NCBI GenBank assembly: GCA_942493095.1
Contig: OW818675.1
Coordinates: 523,406-555,405, forward strand
Source: Candidatus Electronema halotolerans
GTDB lineage: Bacteria; Desulfobacterota; Desulfobulbia; Desulfobulbales; Desulfobulbaceae
Direction: 5' to 3'
Length of the DNA stretch: 32,000 nucleotides
Shown: piece by piece, positions 3,297 through 31,135 of the stretch
How the letters are laid out: every line of letters begins with the position of its first letter
Position numbering within the stretch: the stretch's first letter is position 1
Translations under genes and position numbers: made by a program
Notes under the pieces: generated by a model
The model's database searches: none
What the model was told of the DNA's origin: nothing
The model's input: only the letters and a program-made list of their open reading frames with translations

Positions 3297-5576
3297 TCAC
3301 AGCTCGTTGTTCCGACCGGAATTCTTTTCGTCAGATGCCGCCAAGGACTGCAAGACCAGCTCCGCGACATCATGGACCGCAATTTTTTGCTCAAGCCCGC
3401 GCTGCCGGACAGCATTATCGAGCATTTTCAGACAATAGGGGCAGGCGACCGCAATAATGTCCGCGCCCGTATCCAGAGCCTCCTGCACCCGCATTGCGCC
3501 GAGATTCTCGGCAGGCTGCTCCTTGAAGATGCCGCCACCACCACCGCCGCAGCAGAGGCTCTGCCGCCGGTTGTGGGCCATCTCAACCAAGGTGAAGCCG
3601 GGAATGCTGCTGAGTATCTGGCGCGGAGCATCATAGACACCATTATAGCGTCCCAAATAGCAGGGGTCATGATAGGTGACAGTCCGGCGCAGCTCCTTGA
3701 CCGGACGGACAGTGCCTTCCTGGATCAGCCGCCAGAGCAGCTCAGTGTAATGCTCCGCAGGCAGGTTCAGCCCCTCATAGTATTGGCTGAACGCGGTCAG
3801 GCAGTGCGGCGAGGCAGTCACCATCTTCTGCACACCAGCCTCAGCAAGGGCTGCCCTGTTTTTTGCCGCCAATTTGTTGAAAGTGGCAGTGTCGCCGCTC
3901 CGATGGGCCAAGTCGCCGCAACAGCTTTCCTTGTCACCCAAAGTGCGCACAGAAAGCCCAGCGGTTTGCAGCAGCCGCAGCAAAGCTCGACCCGCCATTT
4001 TGTTCCGCTGCGCCGGAGTCTCGTCATAGGCCGTGGTGCAGCAGGTGAAGAGACAGTATTCCGTTTCCGGTGTGACAGCGGGAAGGGCGGCATCTCCTGC
4101 CCAAGCAGCCCGCTGCGCCGGAGCACCCTGCCACGGATTGTTCTGTTCTTTGAGACTGTTCAGCGGTGCTTGCAAATATTCTGGAATCTTACCAGACTGG
4201 ATGTTCCGCTGCCGGATGGTTCTGGTCACATCAATAATTTCAATGCCGCGTGGACAGTTCTCCACACAGGCGTTGCAGGTCAGGCAGTTCCAGACGTTTT
4301 TGTCAACGTCCTCGACCGTGGCCGAGTCTGTGGAAATCGCCCGCAGAATCCGCCGGGCACTGTACGTGCTGACATTGTTGACCGGACAGACCGTGGTGCA
4401 GGTGCCGCACTGCATGCAGGCCATAAAGGTTTCATCAAGGTCTTTTTTCAAGGACTCGGCGTTGACCGTGGAAGGCTGGACCGCCTTTTTCTTGACTGTG
4501 GTCAGAAAGATGGCAAAGGGCCGGTAGAAGAGATGCGACCACTTGCCAAAAGGCACTTCAATGATCAGCATGGGCACGGCAATCGCCAGATGCACCACAT
4601 ACATGATGTAGGTCGGCAGCGGCCAGTTGCCAATGCGGAACAGGTGCATGACCATGCCGGACAAGGCGGTGAGGAAAAGCAGAATCAGGAAGAGCCAGTC
4701 TGTGGCATGGGAATAGCGATGGAGTGCCTCCTCCTTGGTCTTGTAGCGGCTCCAGAGCTTTTCCCCGGAAAAATACAGGATGGTGCCAGCGGCGTAATAC
4801 CCGAAGATGCTGGTGAAATGCCATTCTGCCGTGTCCCGCTGAAACCAGCGGATAAAGACCACGATCAGGAGCATCTTGGTCATGTAGCCGGTCATGAGGA
4901 GGAAATGCTTGAGCCAGCGCGAAATTTTCTTGGTATCGCTCGTGCAGCCCCGCCAGCGTTTCTGGGTGGCGAAATGGATGAGGAACTGCTTGGCCTCACT
5001 GAGCAGAAGGCTGGGCGGCACTGAGCTGTCGCCCATGATGTGGCGGTACATGCGGAACAGATTCGTGCCCAGAAACAGGGTCAGAATGCCGGTCATGAGC
5101 AGGTCGCCCATTTCAATCCAAGCGACCGGAGCAAAGGTGTTCAGTGCCACCCGGTCTGTGATCACCGGGCCATGAAAGAGCACGAACATCAGAATGATGC
5201 CAAGGGAGAGCGTGGCCAAGGAGCCGATTTCCCACGCCTTGGAAAGATACAATTTTTTCGCCAGTCCAGTCCAATCCAGCTCCGTGGTCAGCCAGCGGCG
5301 GACCGCCATCATGGTTTCCGCCGGTTCTGCGCCGCGTGGACAACGGATGTTGCAGTCGCCGCAATAGTAGCAGAGCCACGGCTCTGGCGCGGCCAGCAGC
5401 TTGTCCTTCAGACCGAGCTGGATATAGCGGTATATTTTCCGGGGAAAGGCATGGCTGCTCTCAGACAGGGAGCAGGAGGCGGAACAAAGACCGCACTGCA
5501 TGCACAGCTCCATGTCTTTGGCACCCAGCTCCTCAAGTTCCTTGTGCAATTCTTGCTGAACACTGTACTGTTTCAA
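3297..5576 (-). CDS. Membrane-anchored FeS/CCG-domain oxidoreductase: N-terminal ferredoxin-like Cys clusters, a multi-helix membrane domain, then an HdrD/GlpC/DsrK-like 2x[4Fe-4S] and CCG-domain part (HdrE-HdrD fusion type, HdrF-like).
   Basis: 759-aa ORF with a TTG start preceded by GAGGAG 7 nt upstream. Motifs seen: CMQCGLCSASC, CYYCGDCNIRCP, a block of hydrophobic helices (residues ~115-350), CMQCGTCTTVCP, CLTCNACVENCP, and CCG-type motifs CCGDLAH, HDPCYLGR, CCGGGGG, CPYCLKML. Its stop lies 14 nt upstream of the HdrL-type gene start. Confidence 0.85.
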   Translation of the reverse strand: MKQYSVQQELHKELEELGAKDMELCMQCGLCSASCSLSESSHAFPRKIYRYIQLGLKDKLLAAPEPWLCYYCGDCNIRCPRGAEPAETMMAVRRWLTTELDWTGLAKKLYLSKAWEIGSLATLSLGIILMFVLFHGPVITDRVALNTFAPVAWIEMGDLLMTGILTLFLGTNLFRMYRHIMGDSSVPPSLLLSEAKQFLIHFATQKRWRGCTSDTKKISRWLKHFLLMTGYMTKMLLIVVFIRWFQRDTAEWHFTSIFGYYAAGTILYFSGEKLWSRYKTKEEALHRYSHATDWLFLILLFLTALSGMVMHLFRIGNWPLPTYIMYVVHLAIAVPMLIIEVPFGKWSHLFYRPFAIFLTTVKKKAVQPSTVNAESLKKDLDETFMACMQCGTCTTVCPVNNVSTYSARRILRAISTDSATVEDVDKNVWNCLTCNACVENCPRGIEIIDVTRTIRQRNIQSGKIPEYLQAPLNSLKEQNNPWQGAPAQRAAWAGDAALPAVTPETEYCLFTCCTTAYDETPAQRNKMAGRALLRLLQTAGLSVRTLGDKESCCGDLAHRSGDTATFNKLAAKNRAALAEAGVQKMVTASPHCLTAFSQYYEGLNLPAEHYTELLWRLIQEGTVRPVKELRRTVTYHDPCYLGRYNGVYDAPRQILSSIPGFTLVEMAHNRRQSLCCGGGGGGIFKEQPAENLGAMRVQEALDTGADIIAVACPYCLKMLDNAVRQRGLEQKIAVHDVAELVLQSLAASDEKNSGRNNEL

Positions 5577-9334: not shown

Positions 9335-9556
9335 ATGGCAAAAGCAGATGTGGAAAAATTGCTGGAAGCAGGCGGCAAGGATAAGAAGATCAAGGCAAAA
9401 TATGATGTTCCGGCCACCAAGGAAGAGTTTGTCGCCTTGGCAGCGCAGGACGGCTACAACTTCACCGTGGAGGAGCTGGAAGCTGTGCTCAAAGAATCCG
9501 GCGATGTCTTTGAAAAATACGGCAATCCGCCTAAACGGTCAATTTGGTGGACATAG
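9335..9556 (+). CDS. Nif11-domain small protein.
   Basis: 73 aa. MAKADVEKLLEAGGKDKKIKAKYDVPATKEEFVALAAQDGYNFTVEEL fits the Nif11 N-terminal domain pattern. The GGAGG RBS is 7 nt upstream. A strong terminator follows. Confidence 0.75.
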   Translation: MAKADVEKLLEAGGKDKKIKAKYDVPATKEEFVALAAQDGYNFTVEELEAVLKESGDVFEKYGNPPKRSIWWT

Positions 9557-9562
9557 AAAGAC

Positions 9563-9600
9563 AAAAGAAGGATGCAAGTAATGCATCCTTCTTTTTGTTT
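9563..9600. terminator. Bidirectional rho-independent terminator.
   Basis: Perfect 12-bp stem AAGAAGGATGCA (9565-9576) / TGCATCCTTCTT (9582-9593) with a 5-nt loop. A-rich 5' flank and TTTGTTT 3' flank. It sits between the convergent genes ending at 9556 (+) and 9652 (-). Confidence 0.8.
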
Positions 9601-9651
9601 GACAGGATAGGCAATCTAAATCATTAGATTGATTTTAGCTGATTGCCTTTT

Positions 9652-10209
9652 TTACATTGGAATGCAGAACAACCTCTGGTCGAACGATTCCTTGCCGAAT
9701 ATGTACCAAACACTTCCTGCTGCACTCAAGCAGATTTTATGCACATCGAATGACAATGTCAAAGAAAGATCAGCACCCGCCAATCCTACATTTGGGTGAA
9801 AACCAACAGTTACGTTATGACTGTCAAAATTGTATGATGTGCACCATACTTTGGCACCTGCAACAATAAGACACACTTTAAGCTCTGCTTGCCAGTCTGA
9901 TGGCGTTCCGCATACCTTTAATTCTCCCCCTATTCCTACGATTTTATACAGAGAAACTTCAAATGGTTGGGTTTTGCAGTTGTCAACAGTTTTCAGTGCG
10001 CCAAGAACAGGCATACGAGCTGCTGCTGCACGAACCATAGGAGCTGCTGTGGCAGGCTCTGCCGCATCTCTGCTAATAGCAGAGAGAATCTGCTCTTTAA
10101 GCTTGTCAACTGGCATGTCAGCATGCGCTGCCATCATCTGCCAATCTTTCTCGCTAACATGAGAAGATACAGCTTGTAATGTATCCTTTTCCATTTTTAC
10201 ATCCTCCAT
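9652..10209 (-). CDS. Orphan hypothetical protein encoded in AT-rich island A.
   Basis: A 185-aa ORF that is visibly lower in GC than its neighbours. The second ATG (10194) has a GGAGGA RBS and may be the true start. The acidic/helical N-terminus is followed by a beta-rich, Cys-containing C-terminal half. No family recognised. Confidence 0.6.
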   Translation of the reverse strand: MEDVKMEKDTLQAVSSHVSEKDWQMMAAHADMPVDKLKEQILSAISRDAAEPATAAPMVRAAAARMPVLGALKTVDNCKTQPFEVSLYKIVGIGGELKVCGTPSDWQAELKVCLIVAGAKVWCTSYNFDSHNVTVGFHPNVGLAGADLSLTLSFDVHKICLSAAGSVWYIFGKESFDQRLFCIPM

Positions 10210-10330
10210 GTAATTTGTTAACTTCCATCCAAGATAGATGGAATAATTTTGTCCATTATAATTTGGCTAAAAAAAAATCAATAAAAAAGTATTGTTAGGA
10301 ATAATTATTATTCTTGAAAGTAGGCAAAAA

Positions 10331-10447
10331 TATAGTGTTGCAGGTTTCCGAAGCAGAGTGTTTTAAGGAGTGGTTCGCATTCAATTTGCTAATTTTACTT
10401 GCTTAATATTGGCACAGGCTAACGTAACAGAAAGTTGCAACACTATA
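10331..10447. repeat. Perfect 12-bp inverted repeat enclosing a 93-nt AT-rich segment.
   Basis: TATAGTGTTGCA (10331-10342) and TGCAACACTATA (10436-10447). The pairing extends by TTTC/GAAA after a 2-nt mismatch. It lies at the right edge of island A. Confidence 0.7.
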
Positions 10448-10485
10448 GGTTCAGTTTATTAAAAAAAATGAAGAATGGAATAGGC

Positions 10486-10592
10486 ACGGCTACAACTTCA
10501 CCGTAGAGGAGCTGGAAGCGGTGCTCAAAGAATCCGGCGATGTCTTTGAAAAATACGGCAATCCGCCCAAGCGTTCCATCTGGTGGACCTGA
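10486..10592 (+). pseudogene. Start-less duplicate of the last 35 codons of the Nif11-like gene.
   Basis: Encodes (H)GYNFTVEELEAVLKESGDVFEKYGNPPKRSIWWT*, identical to the C-terminus of the 9335..9556 product. There is an in-frame TAG at 10447-10449 and no ATG/GTG/TTG between it and the repeat. Confidence 0.7.
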
Positions 10593-11728: not shown

Positions 11729-11749
11729 GTTTGAGGGTCATATTTGGGT

Positions 11750-11894
11750 GTTGAAAACTTGTTGAAAACCTGTTGATAACTTGTTGATAACTTCCTGCCG
11801 CCGCTGCCGCCCGCCGAGTTATCAACAAGTTATTAACAAAGTTATCAACACCTCTTTTACTGAAAAACAAGCAGGTTGCGTTAGTTTTCAACAG
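11750..11894. repeat. Phased array of 11-bp repeats forming a long imperfect palindrome. The 9-mer cores resemble DnaA boxes.
   Basis: Four tandem units: GTTGAAAACTT, GTTGAAAACCT, GTTGATAACTT, GTTGATAACTT (11750-11793). A 24-nt GC-only spacer follows. Then come inverted units GTTATCAACAA, GTTATTAACAA, GTTATCAACAC (11818-11851) and a distal GTTTTCAACAG (11884-11894). TTATCAACA matches 8 of 9 positions of the TTATCCACA box. A nearly pure A/T tract follows at 11921-11946. Confidence 0.8.
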
Positions 11895-11958
11895 GTGCGG
11901 CCCGTCCCAACAACAATAGGTTATATATATACAATATATTTATTAAGGCCGCTCCGAC

Positions 11959-12048
11959 CTGTGGAAAACTGCGTCATAAAAAAAGCCCGTGACCAAAAAG
12001 ATCACGGGCTGCGAACATCTTTGAACGAAAAACGGTCAGCGGCTCACC
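11959..12048. repeat. Direct repeat copy 1 (DR1), a terminator-containing ~90-nt segment.
   Basis: Aligns by eye with 13053-13144, roughly 85-90% identical with a few 1-2-nt indels. A further partial copy of its first ~10-20 nt (GGAAAACTG/GAAACTGCGT) lies at 12068-12086. Confidence 0.75.
11978..12010 (-). terminator. Rho-independent terminator downstream of the DUF559-fusion gene.
   Basis: Minus strand: AGCCCGTGA-loop-TCACGGGCT (9-bp stem) followed by a U-run (the A-run 11978-11984 on the plus strand). Confidence 0.7.
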
Positions 12049-13052
12049 GTAGCTGAAAAAAAGAGGCGGAAAACTGGAAACTGCGTTGGAGATTCAAATT
12101 ATCGTTATATATCAAACAGATTCAGTTGAACAAAACCGGGTTCTTTCAAATTGATTTTTTGCTGGGCAGACTCACCTTCTTTCAAACCGCCTAATCTGTT
12201 GATATTTTTTACTATTGTCGGGACACAATATTCGGATGCGCTTTCTTTTACTTGGAGGGTATTAAAACGAAGCACTCTCCAGCCTTCTGTTTTCAAATTA
12301 TTGTCACGAACATTATCTTTTGCGGCTTGTTGACGATTTGCGTGCCAAAAGTCTCCGTCTGTTTCAACGTCAATCTTTCCTGATTGACAATATATTGCAA
12401 AATCCAAAGCATAGTGTCTGTTATTAACATTTACAAACTCCTGACGTTCCGCATTTATCTGCAACCGTTTAAATTCTGACCATAAACGGTCTTCAAGGGG
12501 ACTTGCATCGAAAAGATCATTTATTTCAACTGCTGTGACAAACTTTTCCCATGTTGTCGAAATGAACACTAATCGTCTGTAACGCCTGCTGAGAATAGGT
12601 TTTGGTAAACGTTTAAGGGGCGGATCGATAAAAATTTGGTAATACCTTTTCCTGCTTTTTACATTAGCAGGTTCATCAGGAAAAAGCTGCCATCTGTAAG
12701 CCTTTTTGATATCTAATATTTTCGCGTAATAGTTTATCGCATAAGCATCTTTGCCAAAGACTTTCGTCATGTAAAACGCTATAAAGCAAGGAGGCCAACG
12801 CTTTTTCAGCCATTTCTCAACGCTGCTGACAGGAATCCGATACCAATGCTTTTCATTCACAATGGAAAAATCATGCAAATTGTTAATTATTGCCACAAGC
12901 ACTTCGTTATGCAAATCGTTATCCATTACAACAGCTTCAAATGAAGGCCTTCAACAGCAGCCAAGTTAATCCGCGCATCTGCCCCCTCCACGCGAGAACT
13001 TCAGCACTTTCCGAAAAATCATCCAAGGCATGGAATTTCAGACAGTACCAAT
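12049..13052. mobile_element. AT-rich single-gene insert (island B), bracketed by ~90-nt direct repeats.
   Basis: Visibly low-GC DNA with one gene, lying between DR1 (11959-12048) and DR2 (13053-13144). No recombinase gene. Confidence 0.5.
12105..12926 (-). CDS. Two-domain protein: an uncharacterised N-terminal domain fused to a C-terminal DUF559 / Vsr-like (PD-(D/E)xK superfamily) endonuclease domain.
   Basis: 273 aa. The C-terminus HYALDFAIYCQSGKIDVETDGDFWHANRQQAAKDNVRDNNLKTEGWRVLRF is the DUF559/Vsr-type motif set. I do not recognise the N-terminal ~150 aa (HWYRIPVSS...PPCFIAFYMTKVFG...). Codon usage is strongly AT-biased relative to neighbours. Confidence 0.75.
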   Translation of the reverse strand: MDNDLHNEVLVAIINNLHDFSIVNEKHWYRIPVSSVEKWLKKRWPPCFIAFYMTKVFGKDAYAINYYAKILDIKKAYRWQLFPDEPANVKSRKRYYQIFIDPPLKRLPKPILSRRYRRLVFISTTWEKFVTAVEINDLFDASPLEDRLWSEFKRLQINAERQEFVNVNNRHYALDFAIYCQSGKIDVETDGDFWHANRQQAAKDNVRDNNLKTEGWRVLRFNTLQVKESASEYCVPTIVKNINRLGGLKEGESAQQKINLKEPGFVQLNLFDI

Positions 13053-13144
13053 CTGTGAAAAACTGCGCCATGAAAAAAGCCCGTGACCAGAAGATCACGG
13101 GCTGCGAAACATCTCTGAACGAAAAAGCTCGTCAGCGGCTCACC
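13053..13144. repeat. Direct repeat copy 2 (DR2), covering the stop codon, 3' UTR and terminator of the YTD-type operon.
   Basis: Aligns with 11959-12048. It overlaps the TGA (13140-13142) of the 57-aa ORF. Confidence 0.75.
13073..13103 (-). terminator. Rho-independent terminator of the tusA-dsrE-like operon.
   Basis: Minus strand: AGCCCGTGA-loop-TCACGGGCT followed by TTTTTT. It lies about 40 nt downstream of the stop at 13140. Confidence 0.75.
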
Positions 13145-13313
13145 ACCAGCAGACAGTCTTGTCAGCGGCGAAAATCTTGCTCACCAGCTCATCGTAGTTG
13201 GGATTTTCCTCATAGAGACGGAATTCATCCGCCTCCCGGTCACGGTTGAGAATCTCAACCAAGGTCGTGACCACCTCGTTCGGCTCGGAACGATACACTT
13301 GCAGCATTTTCAT
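13140..13313 (-). CDS. Small conserved-hypothetical-type ORF (57 aa), last gene of the tusA/dsrE-like operon.
   Basis: Below the ORF-track size cutoff. The ATG at 13313 is preceded by AGGAGGAGAA. My translation is MKMLQVYRSEPNEVVTTLVEILNRDREADEFRLYEENPNYDELVSKIFAADKTVCWW*. It starts 15 nt after the upstream gene's stop. Confidence 0.6.
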   Translation of the reverse strand: MKMLQVYRSEPNEVVTTLVEILNRDREADEFRLYEENPNYDELVSKIFAADKTVCWW

Positions 13314-14071: not shown

Positions 14072-14329
14072 TCAGCCCTTCTGAACAAAAAAGCTCATGT
14101 AGCCGGTCTCTTCCTTCTCGCCCAGATACTCATGACCGGCCCGGGCGCACCAGCCAGGAATGTCGTTGCGGGAACCAGGATCAGTGCCGTCAACCTGGAG
14201 GATTTCTCCAGTATTGATCTTGTTGATTTCCTTTTTGGTTTTCAACAGCGGCATTGGGCAGCTCAAACCTTTCGCATCCAGAACCGCAGCCGGGGTCAGG
14301 CCCTCAGGGGCTTTTTTCACATCGCTCAT
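14072..14329 (-). CDS. tusA: TusA-family sulfurtransferase.
   Basis: 85 aa with the diagnostic LDAKGLSCPMPLLKTKK (CPxP) motif. AAGGAGAA RBS. Confidence 0.9.
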   Translation of the reverse strand: MSDVKKAPEGLTPAAVLDAKGLSCPMPLLKTKKEINKINTGEILQVDGTDPGSRNDIPGWCARAGHEYLGEKEETGYMSFFVQKG

Positions 14330-22600: not shown

Positions 22601-23571
22601 CCATCAGCAACCAGTTGGTCCAGATGATGGGCAGCAAAATTGAGCTGGAAAGCGAGCCGGGCAAAGGCAGCGTCTTTTTTTTCACCCTGCTGCTGAAGAA
22701 CGGCGGCTCACGGGCGGCGGCGGACATGGAGGAGCAGGATGAGCCGATTGACAACCTGCTGCCAAGTCTGGATATCCTCTTAGTTGAAGACAATCCGGCC
22801 AATCAGCAGCTTGCTGTGGTGCTGCTGGCCAAGCAGGGCCATGAGGTGGCAGTGGCAGGCAGCGGTGTCGAAGCGCTTGCCGCTTTGAGCAGCCGCCATT
22901 ATGATGTGATCTTCATGGACATGCAGATGCCGGTCATGGACGGCCTGACCGCCACCAAGCACATCCGCCAGATCGAGCAGGGCCGGGTTAGCTGTCTGCC
23001 GGAGGAGCTGACTGAGGTGGAGGAAAAACTGCGGGAGCGGCTCCAAGGCGGTCATATCCCGATCATTGCCGTGACCGCCAATGCCCTCCAGGAAGACCGG
23101 CAGCTCTGCCTTGAGACAGGCATGGACGAGTATCTAAGCAAGCCCTATAAAAAGCACACCCTGCTCCGGGCACTGCAGCGGATTGAGAAAAAAGGCTTGG
23201 ACGAGTCACCGCTGCCGCAGAGGCCGCCGGAGGAGACGGCCCCTGCGGCGCCTGTTTCCCGCGCAGCGGTCAGGCGGCATGTGATAGAGCAGTTTGAACT
23301 GGGACATGAGGACGCGGAAGAGGTGCTGGCTGCCTATGCTGATTCGCTGAAAGACAATCTCAGTAATATTGTTCAGTGGATGGAGCAGGGGAACGGCGTG
23401 GAGGCAGGCCGTCAAGCCCATGCCCTCAAAGGCGGCCTGCTCAATCTCGGCTTGGATCAGCTGGCAGGCATGGCTTTGATCTTGGAAAAGGAGCTGCCCG
23501 CGCAGATCGAGGACAGGCACCAGGAATTGACAGACCAGCTTGAGCAGGCTCTCAAGGATTTCATCGCCTGA
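19651..23571 (+). CDS. Hybrid sensor histidine kinase: TM, periplasmic domain, TM, HAMP, multiple PAS, HisKA, HATPase_c, REC, HPt.
   Basis: H-box [17 protein letters not shown]-box [15 protein letters not shown] and [13 protein letters not shown] shows [11 protein letters not shown]...[11 protein letters not shown]...SKP. HPt shows [13 protein letters not shown]. The track start is a GTG, and the ATG at 19684 is an alternative. Confidence 0.9.
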
Positions 23572-28400: not shown

Positions 28401-29251
28401 TGGTGGATGACAATGAGGCCAACCGCTTTCTCGCCAAAGCCATGCTGCGGCGGGACGGCCATGAAATCATGGAGGCGGCCAACGGCGAGGAGGCCCTGCG
28501 GCAGCTCCTGAAACAGGACTTTGATGCCGTGCTCATGGACGTGCAGATGCCGGTCATGGACGGACTGGCTGTGACGCAGGTCATCCGGGCCTGCGAGGAG
28601 GAGAACTGCTGTCTGAACACCATGAACATGCCCAGCGACTTCTGCGAGGCACTGCGCAGCCAGCTCAAGGGCGGGCATCTGCCGATTGTTGCGTTGACAG
28701 CGAACAATTTCAAAGTGGATGAGCAGCGCTGTCTTGCCTGCGGCATGGATGCCTATGCTGCCAAGCCATTCAGCACCAAGGAAATTTATCAGGCATTCAG
28801 GAAATGCTGCCTGCAGGGACGGCAGCGGCTGCCAATGGCGGCGGACTGCGCCTGCATGGCGCAACAAGCACAGGCCGGGGAGGCTGACATGACGGGCATG
28901 GAGGAGAAGAAAAACGACGGATTGGTGGTGGCGGTTGCCGAACATCTGAAAAACATATACAGTCTGGAGCCGGACCAGGTGGAGCAGATGGTGCGGATTT
29001 CAGCCAGCTCGATCAGCGAGACCTTAGCTCAGGCCAAAGAGGAGCTGGCTGCCGATGATCTGCGCGCATTGTCAGGCTCCGGCCATAAGGCCAAAGGGGT
29101 GCTGCTCGGCATCGGCCTCAAGGAGGAGGCCGAGCTGGCCCGGCAGCTTGAGCTGAAAGGCAAGGCCGGAGAAGCGGCAGACTATGCCGGGCTGCTGGCC
29201 CGTCTGGAGGAGGCTCTGCAGCCGCTGCTGATGCTGAACAGTGCCGCCTGA
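25472..29251 (+). CDS. Hybrid sensor histidine kinase: TM, extracytoplasmic Cache-like domain, TM, PAS x3, HisKA, HATPase_c, REC, HPt-like.
   Basis: H-box ANISHELRTPMNAI, N-box LLKNSIKFS, DQGIGI and GVGLGLTIC. REC shows ILVVDDNEANR...LMDVQMPVMDG...AKP. The C-terminal SGHKAKGVLLGIG is HPt-like. Confidence 0.9.
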   Translation: MKNSKMLILYIVMAAGLIALVLLGGIFVVLKHQEHLDQDIKIYRSSLSQEGESLKQSFNQLVSISTLLVKNPVIINTLDKHLEGQEASRIAAGMVDRSLDAVAAIENIASVFLVSLDGTCLHSSKRDLVGRNYRQSIYVRNALRSGHGLYAVMTVTDGRTKLYYAQTVRNGNLPLGVAVLEIRPAFFHLHSFTTAFTTEPPKPEEMRMGLSTDGSILFNTTDGSLASLKPLAADILPPRKDQPLPIQVLDFPGYSKENLFNEEFLQLSDSAGREYYFFCEPVVNRSLSLIHLISKDWFRSNYHPASSDYSGYIGMLAVMLLIMLILLYMVNRRHRQAMQAAEILKIEAERRIKEKEKYEAIINRNPQGFWLEDDSSGLILEVNQSLCELLQLEAGLIIGHHPGEFVVRSSGEIKSKANISQEGRLRLQHGGAVDVLINSSCIAAPGSREKLCFSFFADISERKQEQEQLFLFSQAVEQSTSAIVITDRNAKAVYVNPFFTEMTGWTKEDLRDADPGLLAAGETDAEMSREIWRQISSGGTWRGFLRRRRKDGRLYWEGQTVCPLYDDKGEISYYLAIKNDITQRLELERQYKAQLAKLELMVEHAAIGIAHVVEAQFAWISRAATEMFGYEEEEALLLPMTAIFEHENACQEALRQAEERFAKDQIFHADLRMRRKDGSLFWCSLTGKLIDLNSPEQGAVWLLKDISRQKEEERQLQLAKERAEEANQAKNDFLANISHELRTPMNAIILGMKRLALDQELLNEEQQQCVIRAQHAADFLLGLIDDLLDFARIESGRLQLSTAPFELEAAVRRAVQSVRYPAEEKGLSLAWEIAPEIPRFVVGDALRLRQILVNLLKNSIKFSEQGEIFVRAAVEKRQEDELRLLFQVFDQGIGIPSDMLHDIFEKFVQVDSSVRRVQEGVGLGLTICSQLCTLMGGRIGAESEPGQGSVFTFTARFGLTEEELEPSEPPQPMRILVVDDNEANRFLAKAMLRRDGHEIMEAANGEEALRQLLKQDFDAVLMDVQMPVMDGLAVTQVIRACEEENCCLNTMNMPSDFCEALRSQLKGGHLPIVALTANNFKVDEQRCLACGMDAYAAKPFSTKEIYQAFRKCCLQGRQRLPMAADCACMAQQAQAGEADMTGMEEKKNDGLVVAVAEHLKNIYSLEPDQVEQMVRISASSISETLAQAKEELAADDLRALSGSGHKAKGVLLGIGLKEEAELARQLELKGKAGEAADYAGLLARLEEALQPLLMLNSAA

Positions 29252-30442: not shown

Positions 30443-31135
30443 ATGAAAAACGTGCTTATAGTTGACGATGATCTGGGGTTTCAGCGGCTGCTGGGCATCA
30501 GTTTGAAAAAATACAAGCAGGATTTCGACATCATACTCTCCAACAACGGCGAGGAGGCCATTGGCGTGCTCAACCGCAAGCCAGTGGATCTGATCATCAC
30601 CGACCTGCAGATGCCGAAAATTGACGGCCTCACCCTGCTGGCGTACATCAATGATGCCTTTCCCAAAATGCCCTGCGTGATCATGACCGCCCATTCCACG
30701 CCGGACATTGAGAAGCAATTTGCCCAAACCGGACAGCTCCTTCTGAAAAAGCCCTTCACAATCAACAAGCTGGTTGAGGCGATTCACACGGCCCTGAAGC
30801 CGCGTTCAGCTGCTGACGGCATGTTGAAAGGCATATCCGTGGCCAATTTCCTCCAGATGATCGCCTTGGAGCAGAAGACCTGCCTGCTGGAGATCACGGC
30901 TTCGGGCGGAGACAAGGGCTTCTTTTACATTGAAAACGGTGATGTCTTTGATGCCGCCTTTCGTGGCCTGACCGGTGAGGAGGCAGCCTACGCCCTGATC
31001 GGCACGGACGGGGCCAGCATCCGCTTCACCAACATTCCGGCTAGCAAAAAGGTGAAGCAGCGCATTCAAGCAAGCCTGATGGCCTTGATCATGGAGGCCA
31101 TGACCCGGAAAGATGAAACCATTGGCAGCCCCTGA
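30443..31135 (+). CDS. Response regulator: REC plus a DUF4388 domain.
   Basis: MKNVLIVDDD...ITDLQMPKIDG...KKP forms the receiver. The C-terminal LKGISVANFLQMIALEQKTCLLEITASGGDKGFFYIENGDVFDAAFRGLTGEEAAYALIG matches the DUF4388 pattern. Confidence 0.8.
   Translation: MKNVLIVDDDLGFQRLLGISLKKYKQDFDIILSNNGEEAIGVLNRKPVDLIITDLQMPKIDGLTLLAYINDAFPKMPCVIMTAHSTPDIEKQFAQTGQLLLKKPFTINKLVEAIHTALKPRSAADGMLKGISVANFLQMIALEQKTCLLEITASGGDKGFFYIENGDVFDAAFRGLTGEEAAYALIGTDGASIRFTNIPASKKVKQRIQASLMALIMEAMTRKDETIGSP

Follow-up and report, generated by a model that had tools for sequence, protein, structure and literature searches.

A duplicated gene tail and terminator bracket an AT-rich DUF559-family gene in Candidatus Electronema halotolerans

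How does a gene come to lie between two copies of its neighbour's tail when no mobile-element machinery is evident at the site? This question is raised by a locus of Candidatus Electronema halotolerans, a cable bacterium from the family Desulfobulbaceae; we examined it in a 32,000-nt stretch of contig OW818675.1 (hereafter the window; position 1 is its first letter). Between positions 11959 and 13144, a gene encoding a 273-amino-acid (aa) protein with a DUF559 domain is enclosed by two direct repeats of about 90 nt, DR1 and DR2. It lies next to a tusA-containing operon whose last gene encodes a 57-aa protein, and all of the relevant genes of the locus are on the minus strand. An initial annotation of the sequence had suggested that the repeats duplicate the stop codon and terminator of this operon, and that a circular molecule carrying host-like sequence had integrated by a single crossover. 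Here we ask where the repeats come from, how old the insertion is, and by which route it might have arisen.

The repeated sequence is the operon's own tail

DR1 and DR2 are 88% identical over 93 alignment columns, with three small indels (blastn E = 6e-26), which agrees with the annotation's estimate by eye of 85-90% identity with small indels. Their longest identical block is 18 nt, and the mismatches are scattered. Weaker similarity continues for about 7 nt beyond the distal end (11952-11958 and 13046-13052), and for about 13 nt beyond the proximal end, where it runs into the final codons of the 57-aa gene, most clearly so in a related lineage, L089. Since the similarity to the downstream copy in L089 reaches these last codons, the duplicated unit was originally a gene tail that extended beyond the terminator alone. 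In DR2, the TCA at 13140-13142 is the TGA of the minus-strand 57-aa open reading frame (ORF), and a terminator-like hairpin with an 11-bp stem followed by a T run is found in both copies, at 13103-13078 in DR2 and at 12010-11984 in DR1 (minus strand). DR2 is thus made up of the stop codon, the 3' untranslated region (UTR) and the terminator of the 57-aa gene, as had been proposed, and DR1 is a diverged second copy whose terminator is placed to serve the inserted gene.

The 1004 nt between the repeats have a GC content of 0.393, versus 0.53-0.55 in the flanks, and contain a single ORF. Its GC content at third codon positions (GC3) is 0.35, versus 0.6-0.76 for the neighbouring genes, so that the description of an AT-rich interior of about 1 kb with foreign codon usage is borne out. 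A Pfam scan of this ORF, which encodes a PUA-like domain and a DUF559 domain, revealed no recombinase domain, again as annotated. We found no terminal inverted repeats at the ends of the insert and no transposase. Beyond DR1, an AT-rich tract gives way to an array of TGTTGATAAC boxes and then to a beta-lactamase-family gene (11728-10622). Two details of the annotation fared less well. A supposed third, partial copy of the repeat at 12068-12086 is at chance level: a 12-mer with two mismatches is expected 2.5 times per window, and at least five matches were seen in 14 of 100 shuffles. A short motif like it occurs at the same place in L089 and in a second related lineage, L087. The operon had been called tusA/dsrE-like. 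TusA (14072-14329) is supported by Pfam, the only other match being Sulf_transp; nothing in Pfam speaks for the dsrE-like label, the 110-aa, 115-aa and 57-aa products having no match.

We scanned species-representative genomes with the 115-aa operon protein, which yielded 80 loci. In seven sister Electronema species (L007-L011, L013 and L015), the 57-aa gene is followed by 285-310 nt of intergenic sequence that contains a single terminator copy, and then by the beta-lactamase-like gene, with no DUF559 gene between them; the uninterrupted arrangement of 57-aa gene, terminator and hydrolase-upstream region that the annotation had anticipated in relatives therefore exists. When aligned with the window, the empty site of L007 carries the stop-UTR-terminator unit once and continues into the same AT-rich tract and box array that follow DR1. 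The unit is doubled only where the insert is present. Because the empty site has a single terminator copy beside the same flanking tract and boxes, the repeat is native, and the window bears an insertion that duplicated it. Neither, judging from the window and the loci fetched, is it one member of a dispersed family of repetitive extragenic palindromes (REPs) or miniature inverted-repeat transposable elements (MITEs). There are two copies in 32 kb, a search of the window from exact matches to three mismatches found no further copies of the hairpin core, and the hairpin pattern is restricted to this locus among 179 fetched loci.

The insert is not confined to the genome in which it was noticed. 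No record of the exact 273-aa protein was found, and near-identical contigs were reached through the 57-aa protein, which is identical in six metagenome contigs. Five of these reach past DR2 and all five carry the insert, while the sixth (L003) ends inside DR2; the two that extend to DR1 have the same 88% identical repeats. At the same site, two close lineages, one represented by L087 and L088 and the other by L089, carry the genes most similar to the inserted one (85-86% aa identity). Their inserts have recognisable repeats of 71-72 nt that are 85-87% identical, and a GC content of 0.36-0.38, versus 0.56 in the flanks. No relative was found to carry the gene at this site with native GC content and without repeats. 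L087/L088 and L089 are the lineages closest to the window, with a beta-lactamase-like protein 87-89% identical to its own, as against at most 71% in insert-free species. Synonymous divergence (dS) between the window and L087 is 0.38 for the inserted gene and 0.13-0.27 for the flanking genes, and between the window and L089 it is 0.45 and 0.25-0.89, respectively.

Since the insert, its repeats and its low GC content are common to these close lineages, and its dS resembles that of the flanking genes, a single insertion in the sub-clade's ancestor, passed on vertically from then on, is the simplest history; the locus is an old scar that has become fixed, and not an active element. The repeat copies group by position (DR1 or DR2) across lineages, which indicates that most of the differences between DR1 and DR2 are older than the lineage split. 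As a separate observation, the inserted gene (window 12105-12926; L087:4001-4822; L089:4001-4789) has a GC content of 0.36-0.38 in hosts of GC 0.56 at an inter-lineage synonymous divergence of about 0.4, and no amelioration is visible. L089 also has about 130 extra nt between the DUF559 stop codon and the downstream repeat (L089:4790-4952). They include the stretch GGAAGTGCTGAAGTGCTCG, similar to window positions 12975-12994 (minus-strand reading), which in the window precede the gene, as well as GCTCGTCAGCGGC, a partial copy of the start of the repeat in inverted orientation. These extra nucleotides hint at a rearrangement or a permuted junction.

A neighbouring insert with an imported gene tail, and the layout of the locus

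A second insert of the same geometry, which we call insert 1 (9450-10588), lies on the far side of the beta-lactamase-family gene. Its direct repeats of 103 nt are 93% identical and surround 933 nt of GC 0.39, whose 185-aa orphan protein (p185) has no nuclease domain; three homologues of it were found. The repeated sequence is the tail of a Nif11-family gene (Table 1). A contig that matches the window at 99% identity along 5.7 kb (L001) lacks insert 1 and has one copy of the Nif11 tail, and the empty site is also present in L087 and L088. The single tail of L001 corresponds to the left part of the left repeat joined to the right part of the right repeat.

The two copies of this tail reveal where each came from. 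The copy now at the Nif11 gene contains the imported sequence CCTAAACGGTCAATTTGGTGGACATAG and ends CCT AAA CGG TCA ATT TGG TGG ACA TAG, while both the displaced copy and the L001 tail read CCC AAG CGT TCC ATC TGG TGG ACC TGA. The copies differ at 10 nucleotides, and all 10 differences are synonymous, including TAG versus TGA; none of 50,000 random placements gave the same result. The dS of the Nif11 gene relative to L001 is 0.167, and it is at most 0.05 for eight neighbouring genes. Both tails evolved as working gene ends in different genomes, and one of them came in with the insert. Synonymous-only differences mean that an orthologous tail was imported, and that the repeats are not a target duplication made by fill-in. 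In L175 and L176, which represent a more remote lineage, a p185 homologue (74% aa identity) is convergent to Nif11, which ends in TAG and shares a terminator with it, and no repeat is present. This donor-like arrangement is the layout that a donor would need, without the duplication.

The cargo of insert 1 is convergent to the duplicated tail, while that of the main insert, and that of a metagenome locus described below (L127), is co-directional with it. The varying orientation argues against a directional mechanism encoded by an element, and for a generic recombination route.

Table 1. Features of the two inserts and of the adjoining operon gene in the window
Feature	Position	Strand	Remarks
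Insert 1, left repeat: last 34 codons of the Nif11-family gene (9335-9556); distal 25 nt imported, AT-shifted, synonymous, ends TAG	9450-9552	+	
Insert 1, interior: GC 0.39, own bidirectional terminator (9563-9595), 185-aa orphan gene (9652-10209), AT-rich upstream region	9553-10485	-	
Insert 1, right repeat: displaced native Nif11 3' tail, native TGA after it	10486-10588	+	Matches empty-site allele
DR1, downstream copy: orphan GGTGA, UTR, terminator placed to end the inserted gene	11959-12048	-	Conserved in L087, L089
Downstream region of the inserted gene, 56 nt, includes the motif at 12068-12086	12049-12104	-	
Inserted gene, 273 aa, PUA-like and Vsr-like DUF559; GC 0.38, GC3 0.35	12105-12926	-	
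Upstream region of the inserted gene, 126 nt, foreign segment	12927-13052	-	Last ~58 nt conserved in L087/L088
DR2, upstream copy: last-codon GG and TGA of the 57-aa gene, 3' UTR, intrinsic terminator	13053-13144	-	Remains the terminator of the tusA operon; single orthologous copy in L007
57-aa gene, last of the tusA-containing operon, ends TGG TGG TGA; its tail is the duplicated anchor	13140-13313	-	73-100% aa identity in relatives; exact in 6 metagenome contigs

Two further features of the window lie outside the inserts. The boxes beyond DR1 follow the pattern TTWTCAACA, one mismatch from the DnaA box TTATCCACA. Seven of the nine such boxes in the window fall within 11749-11896 and 11915-11945, where 0.5 would be expected per window. 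Four are in tandem at an 11-nt phase, followed by a 24-nt GC-rich spacer, three inverted boxes and one more, and then by an ATATATA-rich tract. Electronema species retain the array upstream of their beta-lactamase-like gene, and the minimum of the window's cumulative GC skew is close by, at about 12.8-14.8 kb; the array could serve as an origin of replication or as a set of operators. Three diverged copies of a 66-nt coding stretch (22902-22967, 28522-28587 and 30586-30651), 67-77% identical to a reference copy, occur in large ORFs on the window's right side, and presumably represent a domain common to paralogous genes.

The inserted gene and its family elsewhere

If the inserted gene encodes a nuclease, did that nuclease make the duplication? 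Residues 144-230 of the 273-aa protein match Pfam DUF559 (E = 1.3e-9). A 25-sequence profile searched against the PDB matched 3HRL, a DUF559 structure (E = 4e-4), and less strongly the catalytic domain of the homing endonuclease I-Bth0305I (3R3P; E = 1.7e-3 over 45 residues), and there was a weak match to the PADLOC homing-endonuclease model (E = 2.3e-3). Across 25 homologues, the catalytic residues D175, E188, D190 (near-invariant) and H195 of an 'ETDGDxWH' motif are conserved. An AlphaFold2 model has a mean pLDDT of 74, with values of about 90-95 in the N-terminal 130 residues. When this N-terminal domain was searched with Foldseek, it resembled the PUA-superfamily folds YTH, ASCH and MJECL36 with probabilities of 0.97-1.0, target TM-scores of 0.33-0.54 and E-values of only 5e-3 to 2e-2.

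A PUA-like reader domain joined to a nuclease is the architecture of modification-dependent restriction enzymes. Because a PUA-like reader fold appears to be fused to a nuclease here, we predict from the model that the inserted gene encodes a modification-dependent (type IV-like) restriction-type enzyme, which would make it defence-type cargo and not the agent of its own insertion. PUA-Vsr fusions have been listed among uncharacterised candidates (PMC6765204). The predicted protein resembles the EVE-HNH enzyme VcaM4I (PMC7897488, PMC6765204) in having an N-terminal PUA-like reader and a C-terminal nuclease in a single-gene unit. It differs in that the nuclease of VcaM4I is HNH, whereas here it is Vsr-like/DUF559, and the fold E-values are weak. 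With the EDxHD homing endonuclease I-Bth0305I (Taylor et al. 2011), as that enzyme is presented in PMC9403480, it shares a Vsr-like catalytic core. Unlike the enzyme presented there, the inserted gene lies outside any intron or intein, its product has a PUA-like N-terminus in place of a sequence-specific DNA-binding region, and its presence and absence fit one old insertion rather than ongoing homing.

The family of the inserted gene is large, with 1174 homologues found, and is 60-86% identical across Desulfobacterota and Chloroflexota, indicating frequent transfer. If the family itself made long duplications, repeats should recur around its other members. We fetched 80 metagenome loci of the family, 69 of which had usable flanks, and found a flanking direct repeat in 14; the other 55 had none. 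As most of the long repeats examined are also of other kinds, a long target duplication was rejected as a family-wide trait. L165:74-3753 has five copies of a repeat of about 130 nt, spaced by 719-1002 nt and with GCCCAAC...GTTRRRY ends, and its homology with L152 begins exactly at G|TTGGCAC. L164:1131-3958 and L153:1100-5047 have repeats that resemble canonical attC sites (GCCTAAC...GTTAGGC among their ends) and are spaced by 0.7-1 kb. Judged from alignments of the repeats, these three loci look like integron-type cassette arrays, and the family is often integron cargo; no integrase was found near these arrays in the stretches examined. The flanking repeats of L152 and L111 are REP-like hairpins, and those of L134, L129 and L140 are tandem paralogues. 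Separately, an intergenic repeat of 67-81 nt (CCTTAAATGCC...GGCTAAAAGAAGTAGTT) lies on both sides of DUF559-family genes in two unrelated contigs (L108:2896-2962 and 4449-4515; L123:2261-2341 and 3826-3906). Its ends are not attC-like, and it may be another cassette-type repeat.

Among the family loci examined, the tail-duplication geometry was seen outside the window only in L127 (2742-4912). Here, a 243-nt repeat, 95.5% identical between copies, comprises the last 80 codons of an upstream 300-aa gene and brackets a DUF559-family gene, which starts 8 nt past the host stop codon, together with one other ORF (239 aa, no Pfam match). The copies show seven synonymous and four non-synonymous differences (P of four or fewer non-synonymous = 0.006), the same bias as in insert 1, and here too one copy is an orthologue that was imported. 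Just downstream, at L127:4949-5755, is a fragment of an IS200-like Y1 transposase.

How the tail may have been duplicated

The account that we prefer, to which we assign a probability of roughly 55%, is homology-anchored capture of foreign DNA, either Campbell-type or one-sided, in which the anchor is duplicated. The recipient would have been an ancestor of the Ca. Electronema halotolerans clade, and the incoming DNA would have been homologous to it on one side only, through an anchor of about 92-105 nt that matches the end of the 57-aa gene, from its last codons and stop codon through the 3' UTR to the terminator. With one shared flank, a double crossover is impossible, and each of three routes would leave this flank duplicated on either side of the cargo: a single crossover, of Campbell type, with a fragment that had become circular, a linear strand bridging sister chromatids, or a homologous anchor combined with an illegitimate join, as in homology-facilitated illegitimate recombination (HFIR). 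In each case, the duplicated stretch would run from the illegitimate or circle-closing junction to the end of the homology between donor and recipient. The duplicated stretches are tails because only anchors that include the stop codon leave the gene intact. The upstream copy preserves the stop codon and terminator of the operon, and the downstream copy supplies a terminator for the new gene and leaves the promoter region of the next gene untouched; the insertion would have persisted because it is harmless to neighbouring genes.

Because the repeats of the main insert are non-coding, its mechanism is argued by analogy with insert 1 and L127, and we infer that the process that made insert 1 probably made the main insert as well. 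The idea of the initial annotation that integration used about 100 nt of host-like sequence gains good support from insert 1, where one copy was imported with 10 synonymous changes. We also infer a circular incoming molecule, but this part of the proposal is less secure, as linear bridging or HFIR leaves the same scar.

Events of this general kind have precedents. Interchromatid integration of transforming DNA generates duplications (PMC3784515), and HFIR and displacement of 3' tails have been proposed for type VI secretion system (T6SS) and Rhs loci (PMC5361080). Campbell integration and HFIR, as represented by the work cited in these two papers (de Vries & Wackernagel 2002; Prudhomme et al. 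2002), resemble our case in needing no recombinase from an element and in using an anchor of about 100 nt beside non-homologous cargo. As these routes predict, native sequence makes up the flank-proximal parts of the insert 1 repeats, and imported sequence the insert-proximal part. The HFIR events described there differ in that they usually delete recipient DNA, whereas duplication of the anchor here would need a circular or interchromatid intermediate. In the displacement of effector tails at Rhs, contact-dependent inhibition (CDI) and T6SS loci (Jackson et al. 2009; Kirchberger et al. 2017, PMC5361080), new downstream genes likewise arrive together with a homologous copy of a host gene's end, and the old tail is moved downstream, where it survives as an orphan, so that the tail is directly repeated. 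In contrast to those loci, the new tail here encodes an identical protein (insert 1) or just a stop codon and terminator (main insert), so that the host gene is unchanged, and the cargo is unrelated to it.

Several points count against homology-anchored capture. The repeats of the main insert are non-coding save for 5 nt and the outgroup L007 is distant, so a mosaic of native and foreign sequence is not demonstrable there. In a three-lineage consensus, the copies are about 93-94% identical, and not identical, at the root of the clade, which fits an imported anchor and also an older fill-in duplication. We found no donor genome, circle junction or excised allele. The four neat inserts of one or two genes are tidier than random circularisation of fragments predicts, although selection against disruptive events could explain this. 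About 1.1 Mb of related Desulfobulbaceae loci, scanned for direct repeats of 50-300 nt at spacings of 0.3-4 kb, contained no further AT-rich insert of such geometry. Finally, the clustering of two scars within 3.5 kb is unexplained. Repeat matches in four loci of that scan (L026, L035, L067 and L052) were set aside, as they have no GC-deviant interior; L067 looks like two adjacent paralogous gene starts.

Could an element, or the machinery of one, have made the insertion instead? Some candidates were rejected outright. The repeat core, the imported Nif11 tail, p185 and the DUF559 family had no matches among viral contigs, and a phage origin was dismissed on this ground. The untranslated regions of the insert matched solely the same locus in close relatives. 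A structured RNA, an intron or a tRNA target was also rejected, there being no credible Rfam matches, introns included, and no tRNAs. A transposon or insertion sequence would not fit either, given that there is neither a transposase nor inverted repeats, and that 92 nt are duplicated where short duplications of 2-15 bp would be expected.

Among the rival explanations that merit weighing, site-specific recombination in trans is the least unlikely, though we consider it improbable. Many integrative elements carry a replacement gene tail, and a duplicated 3' tail with the gene reconstituted is a classic signature of integrative elements. The repeats could then be the attL and attR of a cis-mobilizable element (CIME)-like minimal unit that lacks an integrase and was placed in the 3' end of the 57-aa gene by a tyrosine or serine recombinase encoded elsewhere, and the geometry has been seen three times. 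However, no integrase was found in the inserts or among the window ORFs scanned, the two 'att' sequences are unrelated, 2.5 kb apart and associated with unrelated cargo, the repeats share no identical block longer than 18 nt amid scattered mismatches, and the cargo orientation relative to the tail varies. That the repeats are a true long target-site duplication seems less probable again. Here, a nuclease, possibly the DUF559 protein in the role of a nickase or a homing-type enzyme, would cut the strands about 92 nt apart around the hairpin, and fill-in would duplicate the intervening sequence. The weak C-terminal likeness to I-Bth0305I and to the PADLOC homing-endonuclease model speaks for this, as does the high identity of the family across phyla, which suggests mobility. 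Yet insert 1 has the same geometry with an unrelated orphan gene that lacks a nuclease domain, the copy differences in insert 1 and L127 are biased toward synonymous changes, which fill-in cannot make, and the PUA-like domain points to a modification-dependent enzyme over site-specific homing. In addition, most family loci are free of repeats, and the longest repeats elsewhere (L165, with L164 and L153) are attC arrays, the short ones having been partly examined.

The occurrence of the same gene family in those arrays raises a slightly more doubtful alternative still, in which an integron integrase inserted an excised cassette by treating the terminator hairpin as a pseudo-attC site. Cassettes are circles of about 1 kb, and the inserts do resemble integron cassettes in being single-gene units of about 1 kb without a recombinase of their own, bounded by repeats of 60-140 nt. 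The repeats in the window, however, have no RYYYAAC/GTTRRRY pair on either strand, and thus no R''/R' core sites, and they lack the end-to-end imperfect palindrome of attC, folding only into the local terminator hairpin. They are native sequence that is single in insert-free species, whereas insertion by the integrase does not duplicate about 92 nt of target. Nor is there an array, or an integrase among the window ORFs scanned; a syntenic native gene stands between the two units, whose repeats are unrelated. Hardly credible, in our view, is coincidence, with the 92-nt unit being one of many terminator or REP-like elements and the gene having brought a similar one. Such things occur, as the palindrome of the L152 flanking repeat recurs a third time 2.7 kb away. 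In the 32 kb around our locus, the unit occurs just twice, its copy at the 57-aa gene has the single L007 copy as orthologue, and the similarity spans the GGTGA stop region and reaches the coding tail in L089, with a blastn E-value (6e-26) that does not suggest chance.

A more far-reaching version of homology-anchored capture would hold that there are 'homology-addressed mini-cassettes' in cable bacteria and in some other bacteria, among them the source of L127: single-gene units of about 1 kb that carry the 3' tail of a host gene as an address, and that move between genomes or chromosome copies by RecA-dependent excision at the flanking repeats and Campbell re-integration. In a variant, the Vsr-like nuclease may nick around the terminator hairpin and thereby promote the event. 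This is speculative, and we think it as improbable as a nuclease-made target duplication. If true, it would describe a recombinase-free counterpart of integron cassettes, and would account for the two units that flank one gene.

Under plain homology-anchored capture, the main insert, informative as it is, records a fairly ordinary gene transfer, an event of a known kind and not a new mobility system. Its value lies in showing cleanly, in nature and with both empty sites and an internal control, how a gene can be gained without harm to its neighbours at a site with no evident mobile-element machinery, the incoming DNA supplying a second copy of the host gene tail and terminator. The synonymous-only differences between the repeats of insert 1 provide a simple way of telling homology-anchored capture from true target-site duplication by sequence, one that could be used genome-wide. 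The PUA-like/Vsr-like nuclease family, with more than 1100 homologues that are often integron cargo, joins the candidate modification-dependent defence genes.

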